Source of the DNA: Escherichia phage vb_EcoS_bov22_1
Sequence record: NC_073084.1
Direction: 5' to 3' (one strand)
Length of the DNA: 44,612 nucleotides
Below are positions 3,439 to 39,007 of the stretch, piece by piece (positions within the stretch are counted from its first letter, which is position 1; each line of letters opens with the position of its first letter). The translations under genes and the position numbers were made by a program. Under the pieces are notes generated by a model, which was not told the origin of the DNA, did not search any database, and saw only the letters and a program-made list of their open reading frames with translations.

Positions 3439-3443
3439 GGCGA

Positions 3444-3466
3444 AGGGGCCGTATGGCCCCTTTTTT
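3444..3466 (+). terminator. rho-independent terminator
   Basis: Hairpin aggggccgtatggcccct plus T6, right after the tail-fibre stop; near-identical to hairpins at 531 and 29161. Confidence 0.6.
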
Positions 3467-5358: not shown

Positions 5359-5824
5359 GTAGCTCACTCTCGCTCATTATTTCAATTTGTGCGCTGCCGA
5401 TGGGTGGCGCTTCGTCAAAGATTATCAATTGCTGGCACTTGTTATTGCTCGGACCGACTTCGCCGGTGACAGCGTGAATGAATCTAATCCGCCAGTCCAG
5501 AAGAATTATCAGGTTTGCAGTCTTCCGGGCAAGCCTCGCCCACTTCGTCGACGTGTCCTGATTCAGTAGCATGACAGTCCGGCGACCGTGCGCTGCGCAT
5601 TCCACCCACGGCAGCGGGTCGGAATACGGCGGATTGCACCACTTCCACCCTTTCAACTCGGACCAGTCCACATCAAGCGCGCTGTGTTCCGCCGTGAAGT
5701 AACGCGGTAGCAGATGGTTTGCATCGCTTGCCGCCATATCGTAACGGAATCGGTACTTCCGACGAAGCGGTTTAAATAAAGCTGGCGGCGTGCGCCAGCT
5801 ATCTTTTTGCTCACTCTTCTGCAT
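5339..5824 (-). CDS. dam: DNA N6-adenine methyltransferase (phage Dam-like)
   Basis: 161 aa with WCNPPYS (NPPY catalytic motif) and short phage-type N6A-MTase architecture; ATG 5824. Confidence 0.75.
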   Translation of the reverse strand: MQKSEQKDSWRTPPALFKPLRRKYRFRYDMAASDANHLLPRYFTAEHSALDVDWSELKGWKWCNPPYSDPLPWVECAAHGRRTVMLLNQDTSTKWARLARKTANLIILLDWRIRFIHAVTGEVGPSNNKCQQLIIFDEAPPIGSAQIEIMSESELHEYLSR

Positions 5825-9265: not shown

Positions 9266-9289
9266 CAAAAATGGCGGGACAAGCCCGCC
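9266..9289 (-). terminator. intercistronic terminator/attenuator hairpin (minus strand)
   Basis: Minus strand GGCGGGC-UUGU-CCCGCC followed by AUUUUUG, just upstream of the next RBS. Confidence 0.4.
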
Positions 9290-12305: not shown

Positions 12306-13088
12306 TTAACGGCGGCGACGTTTACGTGGCGCTTCGTCTTCGTCGTCGTCCTCATCTTCGTCATCGCGTGGCTTACGACGTTTGCGAGGTTTTTCATCTT
12401 CCTCATCGTCGTCGTCATCGCGGCGCTTGGATTTCTTGGACTTGCGCGGCTTGTCATCTTCATCATCGTCATCACGACGTTTTGACTTTTTGGACTTGCG
12501 CGGTGCTTCGTCTTCGTCGTCGTTGTCCAGGTCTTCGTCGGAACATGAAGACCCGCCACCTCCGAAGGCTTCGCCGTCTTCACGGAATCGCAGACCCAGC
12601 AAGCCAGCCCCGAGACCCTTGCCGTTGGTATTGTTCCACGCCCAGATATCAAGGGACACGTTGCAATAACAACCGGAGTAGATCTCCTGGCCGTCAATCT
12701 CGTCGCCGTCGATGGTCAGACCTTGTTCGGTCTGCTTCTCGCCGAGTGACGTTTGAATGATAGGCTGTTTGAACGATTTGGCGTTGATATACAACATGCC
12801 TTCGAATTCTTCGGTCACTTCGTCACGCTCGTCACCGTCGCGGACTGCGCATTCCTTAGAATCCTGGGCGTAGTGGCGGTCCATCCACTTATCGGCATTC
12901 TTCTCGGATTTCAGCTTGTCGGTGAGCACTGCGCGCGCTGCCGCTTCCACTTTGTCCACCTGCGGATCTTCTTTATCCAGAAGAATCACGGCACGGTATG
13001 CCGGTTTTTGTCCATCCTGTTTAGGGGTATCACGTTCCCAGATTTTCAGGAAGCATACGCGCACATTTTTCAGGTTGACTTTAGCCAT
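12306..13088 (-). CDS. single-strand DNA-binding protein (phage type) with long acidic/basic repeat tail
   Basis: ATG 13088 (MAKVNLKN) with GAGGAA RBS; OB-fold-like body ending in DGEAFGGG; C-terminal repeats DDDDEDDKPRKSKKSKRR; usual partner of the RecB-like nuclease and polymerase A in phage replication modules. Confidence 0.6.
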   Translation of the reverse strand: MAKVNLKNVRVCFLKIWERDTPKQDGQKPAYRAVILLDKEDPQVDKVEAAARAVLTDKLKSEKNADKWMDRHYAQDSKECAVRDGDERDEVTEEFEGMLYINAKSFKQPIIQTSLGEKQTEQGLTIDGDEIDGQEIYSGCYCNVSLDIWAWNNTNGKGLGAGLLGLRFREDGEAFGGGGSSCSDEDLDNDDEDEAPRKSKKSKRRDDDDEDDKPRKSKKSKRRDDDDDEEDEKPRKRRKPRDDEDEDDDEDEAPRKRRRR

Positions 13089-15295: not shown

Positions 15296-15324
15296 CTAAA
15301 AAGAGGCCCGCAGATTAGCGGGCC
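15296..15324 (-). terminator. intercistronic terminator/attenuator (minus strand)
   Basis: Minus strand GGCCCGC-UAAUCU-GCGGGCC followed by UCUUUUUA. Confidence 0.5.
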
Positions 15325-15332
15325 GGAATATA

Positions 15333-15851
15333 TTAATCTTCCAGTTCGAAATAGGTTTCGACGATTTCTTTTAACTCTGTGTGGAAGTCTTCGACGTCGT
15401 CATCTTCCAGCTTGGCGATTGATTTGATCTCGAACGATTCCAGCAGGTCGTCGAATTCGTCGTTCGCGTCGTCGTCATCACCCCCGGCAATAATAGCGGC
15501 ATACTGTTTGATCTCGTCGCGCATCTCTGCCAGCGGATCGGCATCTTTCTTACCTTTGCCTTTCGCCGGGGCTTTTTTACCCTTCGCAGGTTTTTCGTCT
15601 TCGGCTTCTTCATCGTCGTCATCTTCTACGACTTCTTTTTTGGACTTACCTTTCGCCGGGGCTTTTTTAGATTTAGCCGGTTTTTCGTCTTCGGCTTCAT
15701 CGTCGCCATCTTCGACAACTTCTTTTTTCGCCTTAGACGGCTTCTTGTCTTCCTGTTTACCAACGGCAGCGCCAACGGTTTCATAATGCTTTGCAATGGT
15801 TTCCAGTGCTACTACGCCGCGAGTGATCAGGTTTACGATTTGCTCAAACAT
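15333..15851 (-). CDS. highly acidic protein with Lys-rich tandem repeats; first gene of the leftward early operon (candidate host-takeover or DNA-mimic protein)
   Basis: ATG 15851 with GGAGATATACC RBS (upstream part of the track ORF has no RBS); two ~30-aa repeats KKEVVEDxDDEAEDEKPAKxKKAPAKGKxKK; acidic C-terminus. Confidence 0.65.
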   Translation of the reverse strand: MFEQIVNLITRGVVALETIAKHYETVGAAVGKQEDKKPSKAKKEVVEDGDDEAEDEKPAKSKKAPAKGKSKKEVVEDDDDEEAEDEKPAKGKKAPAKGKGKKDADPLAEMRDEIKQYAAIIAGGDDDDANDEFDDLLESFEIKSIAKLEDDDVEDFHTELKEIVETYFELED

Positions 15852-16088
15852 GGTATATCTCCGATTGGTTAAGTTTAGGTGTCGGCAGTTAACTTCGTCG
15901 GTGGCCTTAACATATTGCCAGGTTACGCGTTCTCCCGTTCGGGTAGTGGACCTGGTTATATAATCACGGTTGGGAATCCTGACACTTCGATCCGGCCCCT
16001 GCGTTGCCCCTCTCCAGTTTGCGTCCTGCATCCTGTCGACGGGGTGAATAATAGATTGGTTGCAGGATGGGTGTCAACAACTAATTTC

Positions 16089-16124
16089 AAAAAAAAAAGC
16101 GCCGAGGCAAAATGCGACGGCGCT
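16089..16124 (-). terminator. rho-independent terminator (minus strand) within the divergent control region
   Basis: Minus strand AGCGCCG-13 nt loop-CGGCGCU followed by U10. Confidence 0.4.
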
Positions 16125-16194
16125 AACCAATAAGAGACAATGAGACGGGAATTATTATTACACGCGTGCGCGCCCGTTTCAATATCCAAAGGAT

Positions 16195-16223
16195 TTGACA
16201 CCGTGCAGTTTTGGGTGTAGTTT
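16195..16223 (+). promoter_or_regulatory. sigma70-like promoter for the rightward genes
   Basis: TTGACA-17 nt-TAGTTT about 30 nt upstream of the 16255 start. Confidence 0.45.
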
Positions 16224-16254: not shown

Positions 16255-16584
16255 ATGAATGTAAACGACGCAATCGAAATGTTAACGAAGACTGTTTGCA
16301 GTGAGACAAGCCGGTCATGGGCATACACCGATGCCGTAGGGGCTGTGTTATTTGAAATCGAACGACTGCGCAGTATCGAAAAAGAATTGCGCGCCAGGCT
16401 GGAACTACTCAACGGTACAGCAGCAAGCAAGCTGCAAAAACACAATGAAGAAATGGAAGAATACAAAAAGCAGGTTATCCGTTTGCGCGCCGAGGGCAAA
16501 TCCTGGGCGATGATTGCTGAGTTGACCGGAATTAATCAGAGCACAGTTCGCTCCTGGGTACGCAATAATAAAACTTCTAAGTAA
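16255..16584 (+). CDS. helix-turn-helix DNA-binding protein (putative transcriptional regulator)
   Basis: 109 aa; C-terminal SWAMIAELTGINQSTVRSWV HTH; N-terminal coiled coil; first gene of the rightward block. Confidence 0.65.
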   Translation: MNVNDAIEMLTKTVCSETSRSWAYTDAVGAVLFEIERLRSIEKELRARLELLNGTAASKLQKHNEEMEEYKKQVIRLRAEGKSWAMIAELTGINQSTVRSWVRNNKTSK

Positions 16585-35665: not shown

Positions 35666-35979
35666 TTGAGGCGGCGCGACGCTTTTATGGCCCGCCGCCA
35701 CCCTCCGAAGATTTAGCCGCAAGTTTATGGGGCGCGGCCCCCGAAGATGTTTGTCCGCCTGTTGCGCTATGGCCTGACAACGCGAAGATAGTCGCGGTCT
35801 TCACAGATTGCGCCACGCAATGGCGCACCGGATTTGGTGGCGCATACGGCATCGACTACGGCGTGCTGGAGTGGTTATTTAAGATGCACGGTATCGAAAA
35901 CGAACAGCGCGCGTTTAAAGATATCAAGCTAATGGAACGAATCGCGCTTGATGAGATGGCGCAGCAGAACCCCGCATAA
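35303..35979 (+). CDS. tail assembly chaperone frameshift product (gpG-T-like) via -1 programmed frameshift
   Basis: Slippery A AAA AAC at 35656-35662; the -1 frame is open from there to TAA 35977-35979 with no plausible start of its own. Confidence 0.5.
35656..35662 (+). promoter_or_regulatory. -1 ribosomal frameshift slippery heptamer A AAA AAC
   Basis: X XXY YYZ pattern in the zero frame, two codons before the chaperone stop. Confidence 0.5.
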
Positions 35980-35982
35980 TGA

Positions 35983-36120
35983 AGCGGGACAAAACGGGAT
36001 GTCCCGTTTTGTCCCACCCCACAAATGTGCATATCTAATCACTTCCATTGCATAATCTAAAAGCGGGACAATCGGGACGTCCCGTTTTGTCCCACCCCAC
36101 AAATGTGCATACCTATTCGG
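35983..36120 (+). repeat. two tandem ~79-bp units, each with a 30-bp GGGAC-based palindrome next to a promoter-like TTGTCC-17 nt-TATCTA/TACCTA
   Basis: Perfect inverted repeat gggacaaaacggga-tg-tcccgttttgtccc at 35986-36015; degenerate copy 36065-36093; each followed by accccacaaatgtgcata. Confidence 0.6.
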
Positions 36121-36127
36121 ATTTCGT

Positions 36128-36301
36128 GCATAAACTAAGCGGGACAAAAAGCGGGACAAACAAGGTGCGGGACAAAGCGGGACAGCACCCCCGTCCCAGC
36201 CAGTGCTGCCGCGGTTTTTAGCCGATCGGGACAGGCGGGACAAACCCCAGTCTTTCAGACTAGACGGGGGTCAATGGCCCCCCTCGTCTGAGACTGCATA
36301 A
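36128..36301 (+). repeat. structured repeat element, copy B (GCGGGACA iterons plus hairpins)
   Basis: About 70 nt then about 60 nt near-identical to 18955-19126, with a divergent central segment; in the second hairpin the single C/T difference falls in the loop. Confidence 0.7.
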
Positions 36302-36364
36302 GGTTTGTTTTAAATTCGCTGATACAATATCAATCGGCAACTGCATAAAAAAGGGGACTGCATA

Positions 36365-39007
36365 ATGGCAGATCAAGCAGCAGGCATCACGCTAAAGGTC
36401 GATGCCACACAAGTCAGAACGGCAAATACGGCGCTGGACTCGTTCGCACAGAAGTCCGAGACTACGGAATGGAAAGCTAAGAAATTAAACGACACACTCG
36501 GCAACACGAAAAAGGTGACGGGTGACGCCGCGGGCGGAATGGGGAAGCTGGCGAACGAATCGCAGCGCGCCGCCGATGGCATGACGAAACAAGAGCGACT
36601 TGCCAACCGGTTAGGCATGTCGACCAAAAACCTGGGCTTTGCCTCGCGTAACGCCGCATTCCAGTTACAGGATATTGCGGTAACGCTTGAGATGGGTATG
36701 CCTGTTCACCGCGTCATGCTTCAGCAGTTACCGCAGCTAACTGGGGCGTTCGGTGGACTGGGTAACACGCTGCGTTTTGTTGCGGGCTTCCTCGGCCCAG
36801 TGGGGATCGGCCTTGCTGCCTTGACGGCAACGTTAGGCGTAGGGGTGGCAATTACGTCCCGCGCAGAAAACCAGGTCGCAGCGCTTAACAAGACGCTGGC
36901 GCTGTCAGGTAACATTTCCGGCCTAACTGCAAACCAGATCCTGGTGCTATCCGAGAACGCCGAGCGCATGGGCGGGTCGTTCCGCAAGACGCGTGACACA
37001 ATCCAGGCGCTGGCGGCGGCGGGTGTGAAAGCGGGTGGTGACTTCGGCGCACTGGCGAAGGTAGTGAATGACTTCGCGAAGGTGTCCAGCCAGCCGATCG
37101 AGGATGTGGTCGCGGCGGTGGCTAAGCTGTCTACCGACCCGGTAGGTGGCTTGCGAGCATTGGCGGATAAGTATCACGTCGTAAACGAAGCGCAGATCCA
37201 GCAGGTACAATCCCTGGTGGATATGGGTCGTGAGACTGAAGCGGTGGCGCTGGCTAATAAAACAGCCGCGGCGTCGTTCACCACCATGACCAACGATATT
37301 AAGTCCAACATGGGAACGCTCGAGCGGTCGATGAACATCGTCACATCGGCAGCGAAATCTATGTGGGATGCAATCCTGGATGTTGGACGCGCGCAGTCCT
37401 CGAATGAGTCCGAGATGAAAGCGCGTGAGTCATTGCAGCGACTGACCACGGCTTACTATGCCGAGATGAAAGCGGTAAACGCTGCCGGTGGGGTGATGAC
37501 CGAAGCGCAGAAAGCGCGTATTAACATGCTTTACAGCGAACTGGTAGCCCAGGAAAAAGTAGTGGCGTCGCTAACCCTGCGTAACCGTGCCGAGCGAGAC
37601 AACGCCAGCGCCGCGGAACAATCAGCGAAGGCGAACGAGGAGGCCAACCGCACCGCCCGCGACCGCGCCGCGTTCGAGAAGGAGTACGCGACCAACGCGA
37701 AGCGGCGCGCCGACGAGATCGCCCGCCTCAATTTGCTGAATAAGCGCGGCGTGATTGATGAGAAAGAACTTGCCGAGGCGGTGAAGCAGGTCAACGAGCG
37801 TTACAAAGACCCCGCCCCGAAGAAGGCCGCCGCTGTTCGAGTCGATGCAGGGATGAAAATGCTGGAAGTAGCACGGAGCGAACTGGCACAGCTTCGTGAG
37901 TCTGGAAAGCAGATCGAAGCCAACGCATCGACGCAGACCCGCACGCAACGCGCGCAAGCGGCCTTAAACAAGCTGATCGCGGATAATGAGCAGTTAATTG
38001 CTGCGAGCAAAGAAAGAGCGCTAACGGCAGCCGAAAAGCAGCAGATGGTAGAATTCGGACGCGTGAAGGAAGTGCGCGAGCAGATCGTCGAAGAAGCCAA
38101 ATTGCTGGACGCGAAAGAGAAGCAGGTCAAGGCGCACGCGCAGATCGACGCCTTCGTTAAGAACCAGAACGCCGAGCTAAAAGCCACCGCGGCGGGCTAT
38201 GCGCTTTCCACTCGCGAAGCGGCTAACCTGCGCGAAGAATTGCAGCTAATTGATCGCCTTAAGCGGGTTGGCGCTAGTGATACCGATATTGATCTGGCGG
38301 TGTCTAAGCTGCGCGAAGTGCAGGAAGCACAGACAGGGGCTAACGCCTCGCTATGGGATGGCTTCAGCCGCGGGCTTAAGGATAGCGTGGATGATATGGG
38401 TAACGGATATACGCAGATGGCGTCACTCACAAAATTCACGTTCGGCGCTATGCAGGACACGATGAACAAGTTTTTCGAGACTGGCAAGCTGAACGCAAAG
38501 GATATGGTTAAATCCATCCTTAGCGAATTAATCAAGCTGGCTACATCGCAGGCATTCAAGTCCATCGTTAGCGCTTTCGGTGGCGACGGCGGCAAAAACG
38601 GATTGTTCGGCGCTATCTTCTCGGGCCTAACTAAGAATGCGGACGGAGGAGCGTACGCAGGGGGCAATCTCGCGGCCTATTCGGGGAAAGTGGTAAGCCA
38701 GCCAACCTTTTTCAGTTATGGCGTCCAGGCGTTCGCTAAGGGCGCAGGATTGATGGGGGAGGCTGGACCCGAGGCTATCATGCCGCTTAAGCGCGGCCCG
38801 GACGGAAAACTGGGCGTTGCCGCTGCCGGTGTAGGCGGAGGGATGATTGTAACAACCAACGTTAACATGGGGACCGGTAAGACGGATACCAGTGTTAGCG
38901 GACCAGACCCGCGCACAGCGCAGGCGTTCGGAAAGCAAATCACCGAGTCGGTCAAGGCCGAGATCGTGAAGGCGACGAAACCGGGTGGTGTACTTTACAA
39001 ACGATGA
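36365..39007 (+). CDS. tail tape measure protein
   Basis: 880 aa, largely Ala/Gln/Lys/Glu-rich with Gly-rich segments; follows the G/G-T chaperone; AAGGGGA RBS. Confidence 0.8.
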   Translation: MADQAAGITLKVDATQVRTANTALDSFAQKSETTEWKAKKLNDTLGNTKKVTGDAAGGMGKLANESQRAADGMTKQERLANRLGMSTKNLGFASRNAAFQLQDIAVTLEMGMPVHRVMLQQLPQLTGAFGGLGNTLRFVAGFLGPVGIGLAALTATLGVGVAITSRAENQVAALNKTLALSGNISGLTANQILVLSENAERMGGSFRKTRDTIQALAAAGVKAGGDFGALAKVVNDFAKVSSQPIEDVVAAVAKLSTDPVGGLRALADKYHVVNEAQIQQVQSLVDMGRETEAVALANKTAAASFTTMTNDIKSNMGTLERSMNIVTSAAKSMWDAILDVGRAQSSNESEMKARESLQRLTTAYYAEMKAVNAAGGVMTEAQKARINMLYSELVAQEKVVASLTLRNRAERDNASAAEQSAKANEEANRTARDRAAFEKEYATNAKRRADEIARLNLLNKRGVIDEKELAEAVKQVNERYKDPAPKKAAAVRVDAGMKMLEVARSELAQLRESGKQIEANASTQTRTQRAQAALNKLIADNEQLIAASKERALTAAEKQQMVEFGRVKEVREQIVEEAKLLDAKEKQVKAHAQIDAFVKNQNAELKATAAGYALSTREAANLREELQLIDRLKRVGASDTDIDLAVSKLREVQEAQTGANASLWDGFSRGLKDSVDDMGNGYTQMASLTKFTFGAMQDTMNKFFETGKLNAKDMVKSILSELIKLATSQAFKSIVSAFGGDGGKNGLFGAIFSGLTKNADGGAYAGGNLAAYSGKVVSQPTFFSYGVQAFAKGAGLMGEAGPEAIMPLKRGPDGKLGVAAAGVGGGMIVTTNVNMGTGKTDTSVSGPDPRTAQAFGKQITESVKAEIVKATKPGGVLYKR

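Follow-up and report, generated by a model that had tools for sequence, protein, structure and literature searches.

What is the function of the acidic protein that opens the leftward operon of Escherichia phage vb_EcoS_bov22_1? The window analysed here is the whole stretch of 44,612 nucleotides (NC_073084.1). It is an entire Dhillonvirus genome in permuted order, with window coordinate equal to record coordinate minus 20594; its sequence agrees at 100% identity with that of Escherichia phage vb_EcoS_bov11C2, and matches were found to 174 phage records, nearly all of them Dhillonvirus. The gene in question (record positions 35927-36445) is the first of a minus-strand operon of about 12 kb, in which it is followed by two small open reading frames (ORFs), a DUF2800/PD-(D/E)XK nuclease, a single-stranded DNA-binding protein (SSB) of the Enc34/DUF2815 type, DNA polymerase I (PolA) and an SNF2-type helicase. 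A helix-turn-helix (HTH) protein and a primase-helicase are encoded divergently from this operon. A preliminary description, made from the sequence alone, had proposed that the product is an anti-restriction DNA mimic or a host-takeover factor. The reading that we favour, tentatively, is another one: the protein may be an SSB-coupled replication adaptor, that is, an accessory factor of the phage's own replication/recombination module. The gene and the parts of its product are as follows.

15333..15851 (stop codon included), minus strand: coding sequence of the 172-aa acidic protein (PHROG 3127), from the ORF call and homologues.
15765..15851, minus strand: conserved amphipathic N-terminal helix, residues 1-29, from alignments and an AlphaFold2 model (helix 2-29, predicted local distance difference test (pLDDT) about 61-65).
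15540..15764, minus strand: polyampholyte spacer, residues 30-104, containing both repeat units, from Tandem Repeats Finder, pLDDT below 50 for residues 23-101, family lengths and charge blocks.
15336..15539, minus strand: conserved acidic three-helix domain, residues 105-172, the signature of the family, from alignments and AlphaFold2.

What kind of protein is it? The whole chain has 52 Asp/Glu and 29 Lys/Arg residues and an isoelectric point of 4.45. Its last 69 residues contain 26 acidic and 5 basic ones, in agreement with the strongly acidic C-terminus of the preliminary description; in the C-terminal domain (C-domain) of 63 aa the numbers are 24 and 5, and there are invariant acidic positions. 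The two charge-block repeats of about 30 aa that had been described are also confirmed. Tandem Repeats Finder reports a 90-nt unit in 2.0 copies with 85% matches at 15559..15735, which corresponds to two units of 29-30 aa. Runs of same-sign charge in the linker have a mean length of 5.6 residues, compared with 1.95 ± 0.28 after shuffling, and none of 2000 shuffles reaches 5.6. The charge-block pattern is far beyond chance. Acidic blocks alternate in the spacer with blocks of Lys, Pro and Ala, its basic residues number 22, and by its low model confidence it is probably disordered. In the N-terminal helix the residues M1, L8, R11, V13, A15, E17 and A20 are near-invariant, and the motif L-L-E-R-F-V-V-A-H-E-L-I-A is found in most lineages. 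AlphaFold2 with an alignment of 21 sequences gave an unusable model (pLDDT 46.8), while an alignment of 44 sequences gave a confident C-domain, with predicted helices at 106-123, 127-139 and 153-168 and mean pLDDT of 86-93 for the blocks in 111-160.

How is this architecture kept among relatives? The protein matches PHROG 3127 ("unknown function") over its full length, with E = 2e-53 and residues 1-172 on profile positions 1-178. A total of 166 homologue clusters were found among 5.8 billion proteins, and an exhaustive search of 1.84 billion representatives with the C-domain profile yielded no more than 40 clusters at 50% identity. All members from the phage collection come from phages of Enterobacterales. 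Full-length members have about 115-212 aa and all carry the acidic domain at the C-terminus, where it forms the last 62-69 aa with about 20 acidic and about 8 basic residues and many invariant positions; in P0122, P0123 and P0128 it is duplicated. The spacer ranges from 28 to 100 aa, with Lys/Arg about as frequent as Asp/Glu, with Pro and Ala, and with a net charge near zero, so that composition is kept while sequence and length are not. The 90 Dhillonvirus-type clusters show 32 different total lengths, and across clusters of all these lengths the C-domain stays in frame, which supports the 172-aa ORF as a real gene. In P0083, which lies on a contig of about 44 kb, and in P0098 the repeats have shrunk to about 15-20 residues. 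Because the spacer is variable and of low confidence while the N-terminal helix and the C-domain are the conserved and better predicted parts, the tandem repeat is real yet is a dispensable spacer, not the functional core. The repeats are not a DNA-like scaffold either, as they belong to a net-neutral, low-confidence and probably disordered spacer of variable length that is nearly deleted in some relatives.

The family is catalogued yet uncharacterised, and membership in PHROG 3127 is uninformative on mechanism. Scans against Pfam, NCBIfam and PADLOC gave nothing meaningful, the sole Pfam match being a sub-threshold, low-complexity one to BUD22, and searches of PDB sequences with the protein and with the C-domain profile returned only noise. 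One record labels the protein as "prohead core protein", a name for which we found no support. The anti-Tmn protein of Dhillonvirus is the product of another gene (ORF35, which contains a beta-sheet) and not the acidic protein.

Does the gene belong to the replication module? In every context read it is found 0-4 genes upstream of the DUF2800 nuclease, and this applies to the short contig with P0155 as well. Where a contig includes the upstream flank (L004, L005, L008, Serratia phage Otaku and Klebsiella phage VLCpiS11a) the gene is divergent from the primase-helicase, and wherever the contig reaches far enough the Enc34-type SSB and PolA follow downstream. Comparison of the window with lineage L004 detects no more than six proteins of this region in both, the acidic protein among them. 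Its identity is 38% over the whole length and 57-59% in the C-domain, while PolA reaches 64% and the primase-helicase 43%. Since it is still detectable at a divergence where the primase-helicase is at 43%, and since it is kept at the head of the replication module, the gene behaves in sequence comparison as a core gene rather than as an accessory gene in an arms race.

What could such a protein do next to these genes? A hint is given by the tail of the SSB, which is the proposed partner.

12309..12542, minus strand: C-terminal tail of the Enc34/DUF2815-type SSB (coding sequence 12306..13088), from its sequence, its repeat and its co-occurrence with the acidic family.

Canonical SSBs recruit and regulate replisome partners electrostatically, by an acidic tip on a disordered linker, as in the E. 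coli SSB C-terminal tail (SSB-Ct), T7 gp2.5 and T4 gp32. In the window the tail consists of four alternating acidic and basic blocks (...DDEDEAPRKSKKSKRRDDDDEDDKPRKSKKSKRR...APRKRRRR) with a 54-nt tandem repeat, and a basic tip takes the place of the usual acidic one. The linker of the acidic protein aligns to this tail with a score of 115, compared with 70.6 ± 7.8 for shuffled tails, and 0 of 1000 shuffles reach 115. The block tail goes together with the acidic family: acidic/basic block tails are present in all six lineages that have the family (the window, L004, L005, L008, Otaku and VLCpiS11a), and the tip is Arg-rich in four of the six, being acidic in L008 and missing in L005, where the gene is cut by the contig end. 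In contrast, the three lineages without the family (the Chi-like phage FSL SP-124, Yersinia phage YeP4 and Achromobacter phage kuwaak) have SSBs with plain acidic tips.

The architecture, the conservation, the synteny, the SSB tail and the co-occurrence are observed, and from them we infer a physical interaction and its consequences. This gives the following scenario. Electrostatic binding would join the C-domain, together with the acidic spacer blocks, to the Arg/Lys-rich blocks and the Arg-rich tip of the SSB tail. The block tail of the SSB would stand in for the usual acidic tip, and the acidic protein would supply the acidic, partner-recruiting element in trans. The N-terminal helix may oligomerise or bind a second component of the replisome, so that SSB would be tethered or chaperoned at the fork, and the multivalent charge blocks may permit condensate-like assemblies. 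A stronger form can be proposed because the SSB tail is basic-blocked and the separate protein acidic, because the two co-occur, and because canonical SSB tips are acidic: a two-component SSB tail system of inverted polarity, whose multivalent electrostatic contacts would build a scaffold, possibly a condensate, around which the replisome of Dhillonvirus and Guernseyvirinae-like phages is organised. We consider this stronger form rather unlikely as it stands, while the adaptor role itself deserves somewhat more credence.

Several observations weigh against an SSB-coupled adaptor. The six lineages with the family are related to one another (Dhillonvirus and Guernseyvirinae-like phages), so the co-occurrence amounts to only one or two independent contrasts. 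The similar charge-block repeats could stem from slippage-prone, purine-rich DNA in both genes, with no functional coupling. The DUF2800 modules are far wider spread (1,144 records) than the acidic family, and an Enterobacterales-only family in such a widespread module also fits a host-specific target. Positional analogues exist in Chi-like phages, YeP4 and the Achromobacter phage (L033:2652-3062, L032:2755-3489, L034:254-1045), and homology between them and the acidic family is not demonstrable (hhalign probability 3.6%, E 0.012, N-terminal helix only). Finally, the Jersey-like homologue in phage MB78 bears the database name "13.88 kDa late protein", the basis of which we could not trace.

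There is a further question of concern, whether the acidity could serve an attack on the host rather than the replication of the phage. In the anti-restriction version, the protein would be a DNA mimic like Ocr or ArdA that blocks type I restriction-modification, and the bacteriophage exclusion (BREX) system, right after DNA entry. The low isoelectric point and the place as first gene behind an early-type promoter fit this version, but no Pfam match to Ocr, ArdA or Gam was found for the protein or for 44 family members (E <= 0.01), and the predicted fold shows no similarity to known or solved DNA mimics. Ocr is a compact, fully structured dimer with almost no basic residues, while half of the present protein is a net-neutral, low-confidence spacer with 22 basic residues. 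The position gives no support to the analogy with first-injected genes either, as in the deposited record about 36 kb precede the gene, which is in the middle of a replication module. What is more, plating data are at hand for Bas15 (PaulFeyerabend), which has a close homologue of 169 aa with about ten differing positions and three deleted residues. This phage has one EcoCFT_I site and one EcoKI site and is restricted about 100-fold by the type I system EcoCFT_I, with an efficiency of plating (EOP) of 0.006-0.014 (PMC8594841, S1 Data, S5 Table), evidence that is indirect, as it comes from a phage carrying the homologue and not from a deletion mutant; on type II and III systems its EOP is 10^-3 or lower (PMC8594841). 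The Dhillonviruses Bas14-17 of the BASEL collection hold only 0-2 type I sites (PMC8594841), which suggests site avoidance rather than an inhibitor. With neither sequence nor fold match, with Bas15 restricted and with conservation like that of a core gene, the Ocr-type role of the preliminary description is disfavoured and now looks very improbable. It is still plausible that the acidic domain acts by binding a DNA-binding protein. If that protein belongs to the host, for example RNA polymerase, HU, H-NS or some defence nuclease outside type I restriction-modification, the C-domain would be a local DNA mimic in a host-takeover factor. A promoter-proximal and probably highly expressed gene, the invariant acidic positions of the C-domain and the limitation to Enterobacterales phages would agree with this, but strict replication-module synteny and conservation at the level of core genes would not, neither PADLOC nor known anti-defence folds give a match, and no result points to a specific target. 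We regard such a factor as improbable, though much less so than an Ocr-like mimic.

The main rival, which we rank second after the SSB adaptor and also think rather doubtful, is an inhibitor of RecBCD, a functional analogue of lambda Gam or T7 gp5.9, whose acidic helical domain would sit in the DNA-binding site of RecBCD and would thereby shield linear phage DNA and rolling-circle intermediates. In favour of this are the small size, the acidity and the helical make-up of the protein, as well as the place of its gene, promoter-proximal and just upstream of a phage exonuclease and SSB, much as gam adjoins exo/bet and gene 5.9 adjoins gene 6. No other anti-RecBCD gene is recognisable in the stretches examined, where the label "Gamma" sits on a 109-aa protein with HTH matches only, and the family is confined to phages of Enterobacterales. 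On the other hand, neither the protein nor the C-domain profile has a sequence match to any solved structure, although Gam and gp5.9 structures are present in the PDB; there is no fold match to a known DNA mimic and no Pfam Gam match; and the co-occurrence with the unusual SSB tail would be left unexplained. Evidence from the P2 OLD system, which is triggered by RecBCD inhibition, is divided. OLD is reported to be robustly protective against Dhillonvirus (2026 preprint, 10.64898/2026.07.10.737580), but the preprint names no Dhillonvirus trigger, origin hairpins can also trigger OLD, and in another study Old had little or no effect on Bas14-16, with EOP of about 0.07-1.3 (BASEL 2021, PMC8594841); both report effects at the level of the phage, and neither mapped them to the acidic gene. 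The last rival is a regulator like lambda N, in which the basic blocks would bind the leader RNA of the mRNA that encodes the protein, and RNA polymerase would be modified so as to pass the terminator behind the gene. The order of promoter, structured leader, first gene, strong terminator and long operon resembles PL-nutL-N-tL1, and the spacer is Lys-rich and probably disordered. But in Drexlerviridae, Jilinvirus-like and other phages the same leader RNA stands before operons whose first genes are unrelated, L004 and L008 have the protein without the RNA, so that the two are independent, the basic blocks are dispensable in natural variants, and what is conserved in the protein is acidic or hydrophobic. 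This makes an N-like regulator the least probable of all the readings considered. Thus the SSB-coupled adaptor is the reading that we retain, tentatively, for the acidic protein.

How is the gene expressed? The preliminary description of a first cistron in a leftward operon, with a strong ribosome-binding site (RBS) and a terminator behind it, is right in all three points, as the following signals indicate.

16077..16048, minus strand: sigma-70-like promoter TTGACA-18-TATTAT, with 11 of 12 matches, kept in all aligned Dhillonvirus copies.
15862..15858, minus strand: Shine-Dalgarno sequence GGAGA, 7 nt 5' of the ATG, conserved in relatives.
15297..15324, minus strand: intrinsic terminator or attenuator (hairpin given as 15324..15305), with 7 G-C pairs followed by TCTTTTT.

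The sequence GGAGATATAC at the RBS is the core of the highly efficient RBS of T7 gene 10. From the consensus-like promoter, the strong RBS and the gene's own terminator, high expression is plausible, and it would fit a stoichiometric binder. The terminator, which also shows a weak match resembling the Trp leader terminator, precedes the remainder of the operon, and in PTXU06 an equivalent one is annotated. Other strong internal terminators of the operon lie at 9289 and 5800, and there is no strong promoter between the one at 15324 and the nuclease, SSB and PolA genes. Upstream of the polymerase gene strong internal promoters are absent, which suggests that the replication genes can be expressed only if the terminator at 15324..15305 is read through. 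We found no transcriptomic data for these phages in the literature. The further hairpins like intrinsic terminators, within and at the end of the leftward replication operon, span 9273..9289, 5780..5800 and 3443..3462 (minus strand), the first two being those at 9289 and 5800.

Where does the protein start? The frame is open upstream to an ATG at 16031, which would give 232 aa, the extension being 15852..16031 on the minus strand. Such long forms are annotated in GenBank records (for example L031:5922-6611), with 229 aa for bas15_0048, 231 aa for Opt212 and 207-239 aa for others. The family N-terminus begins at the internal ATG, and the upstream extension overlaps the structured, non-coding leader RNA. 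For these two reasons the 172-aa start call is correct, and the long-form annotations are probably too long.

The leader RNA deserves a description of its own.

15873..16047, minus strand: structured 5' leader RNA with a core of about 150 nt, extending from the transcription start almost to the RBS, from covariance model R1.

Between promoter and RBS there are about 190 nt of leader. The structured RNA in it has four or more covarying helices, and GNRA-type loops cap one of these. Covariance model R1 finds exactly one copy per genome at 31 loci (for example L009:1471-1641, L010:1483-1655 and L011:1483-1656), in otherwise unrelated siphoviruses: Dhillonvirus, Hanrivervirus slyngel (Drexlerviridae), Jilinvirus Arya, HeidiAbel_Bas97 and metagenomic phages. 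Its position is constant, directly behind a sigma-70-type promoter and, in most copies, 7-30 nt 5' of the first predicted start codon, and in other phages it heads operons of diverse small early genes. Is the structure real? RNAalifold on a MAFFT alignment missed the covarying stems, as the variable helices were misaligned, so a hand-derived structure and realignment with the covariance model were used. On this alignment, which is fitted to the model and thus favours the structure, 25 pairs were scored; 15-17 of them show changes in both partners, and paired cells make up 89-92%, a share that falls to 20-45% when the partners are slid. On four of five measures no more than 4 of 500 shuffles attain the observed value, while for the fifth, the count of further pair types, 103 of 500 do so (second alignment). 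Compensatory swaps are visible already in the raw MAFFT alignment (CCAGG/CCTGG, CCTGG/CCAGG and CCCGG/CCGGG). The RNA matches no Rfam family and has no copy in 5,426 E. coli genomes. A relation to the put-type antiterminator RNAs of HK022 (putL/putR) was considered and rejected, since with filters off the best score of R1 anywhere in the HK022 early region is 5.1 bits (E 0.34). We propose the leader as a candidate new family of phage leader RNAs. A role in terminator read-through or in the function of the mRNA 5' end is a reasonable guess, because strong internal terminators (15324, 9289 and 5800) occur with no strong promoter before the nuclease, SSB and PolA genes.

Another RNA may be encoded in the gap between the divergent operons.

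16088..16182, minus strand: candidate small RNA of about 55-60 nt (transcript about 16147..16088), from a promoter, a terminator and conservation.

Its promoter-like site, TTGAAA-17-AATAAT with an upstream TG, is at 16182..16154 on the minus strand, and its strong terminator has stem arms at 16098-16109 and 16113-16124 followed by a T run. The sequence is near-invariant in Dhillonvirus, and L005 has an equivalent of different sequence. The idea that this RNA masks the RBS of the acidic gene was tried and found weak: a complementarity of 14 nt gives -20.5 kcal/mol, compared with -13.5 ± 2.8 for shuffled sequences, 2.35% of which reach it, and many windows of the genome pair better with the candidate RNA than that RBS does. 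Back to back with the promoter of the small RNA there is a TTGACA at 16195..16200 on the plus strand, which with a spacing of 17 nt and TAGTTT might form a promoter for the gene of the 109-aa protein; it was spotted by eye and is absent from the scan output. That gene (16255..16584, plus strand) starts the rightward operon, and its labels vary among records ("DNA recombination nuclease inhibitor Gamma", "resolvase", "transposase"). Because its sole matches are to helix-turn-helix families (HTH_23 and Sigma70_r4_2), the product is more likely a small DNA-binding regulator.

Why does the acidic protein matter? Dhillonvirus and Guernseyvirinae are among the most often isolated phages of E. coli and Salmonella, and several of them appear in therapy and biocontrol studies. 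Several hundred genomes carry a conserved, probably abundant early protein without assigned function. The present analysis takes away from it an attractive but unsupported anti-restriction label, and corrects an over-long ORF annotation in several GenBank records. If the protein is indeed an acidic partner acting in trans on a basic-tailed SSB, it would reveal a new wiring of the communication between SSB and its partners, and would offer a simple natural model for charge-block disordered proteins in DNA replication. If instead it inhibits RecBCD, a recognised gap for these phages would be closed, and a likely trigger of guard systems such as OLD would be identified.

How does it compare with known systems? 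T7 Ocr (gp0.3) and ArdA are likewise small and very acidic, and are encoded beside an early promoter of a virulent coliphage. They differ from the present protein in that only a 63-aa domain is acidic and structured here, the remainder being low-confidence, net-neutral spacer, in that there is no similarity in sequence or fold, and in that Bas15, which has the gene, does not escape type I restriction. Lambda Gam and T7 gp5.9 share with it a small, helical, acidic and early product encoded beside phage exonuclease and annealing or SSB genes, while homology is not detectable and the arrangement here is a helix, a disordered spacer and a three-helix bundle. The analogues in Chi-like phages (FSL SP-124 SP124_00340), YeP4 and kuwaak resemble it in another way. 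They are the first or among the first genes of the DUF2800-nuclease operon, are divergent from the primase where the flank is annotated, and encode an N-terminal helix, a low-complexity linker and a small C-terminal helical domain. Their linkers, however, are Thr/Lys-rich without charge blocks, and the SSBs of these phages have retained the acidic tip. SP124_00340 is called "RecT protein" in UniRef, a name that was checked and has no Pfam support. For the tails of E. coli SSB-Ct, T7 gp2.5 and T4 gp32 the likeness is one of function. In these tails an acidic element is carried on a flexible, disordered linker, and the acidic protein too has an acidic element on a probably disordered linker, genetically coupled to the SSB by lying in the same operon. 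The differences are that the acidic element is here a separate polypeptide with a folded domain and not a short tail, and that the SSB itself bears an acidic/basic block tail, with an Arg-rich tip in most of the lineages read.

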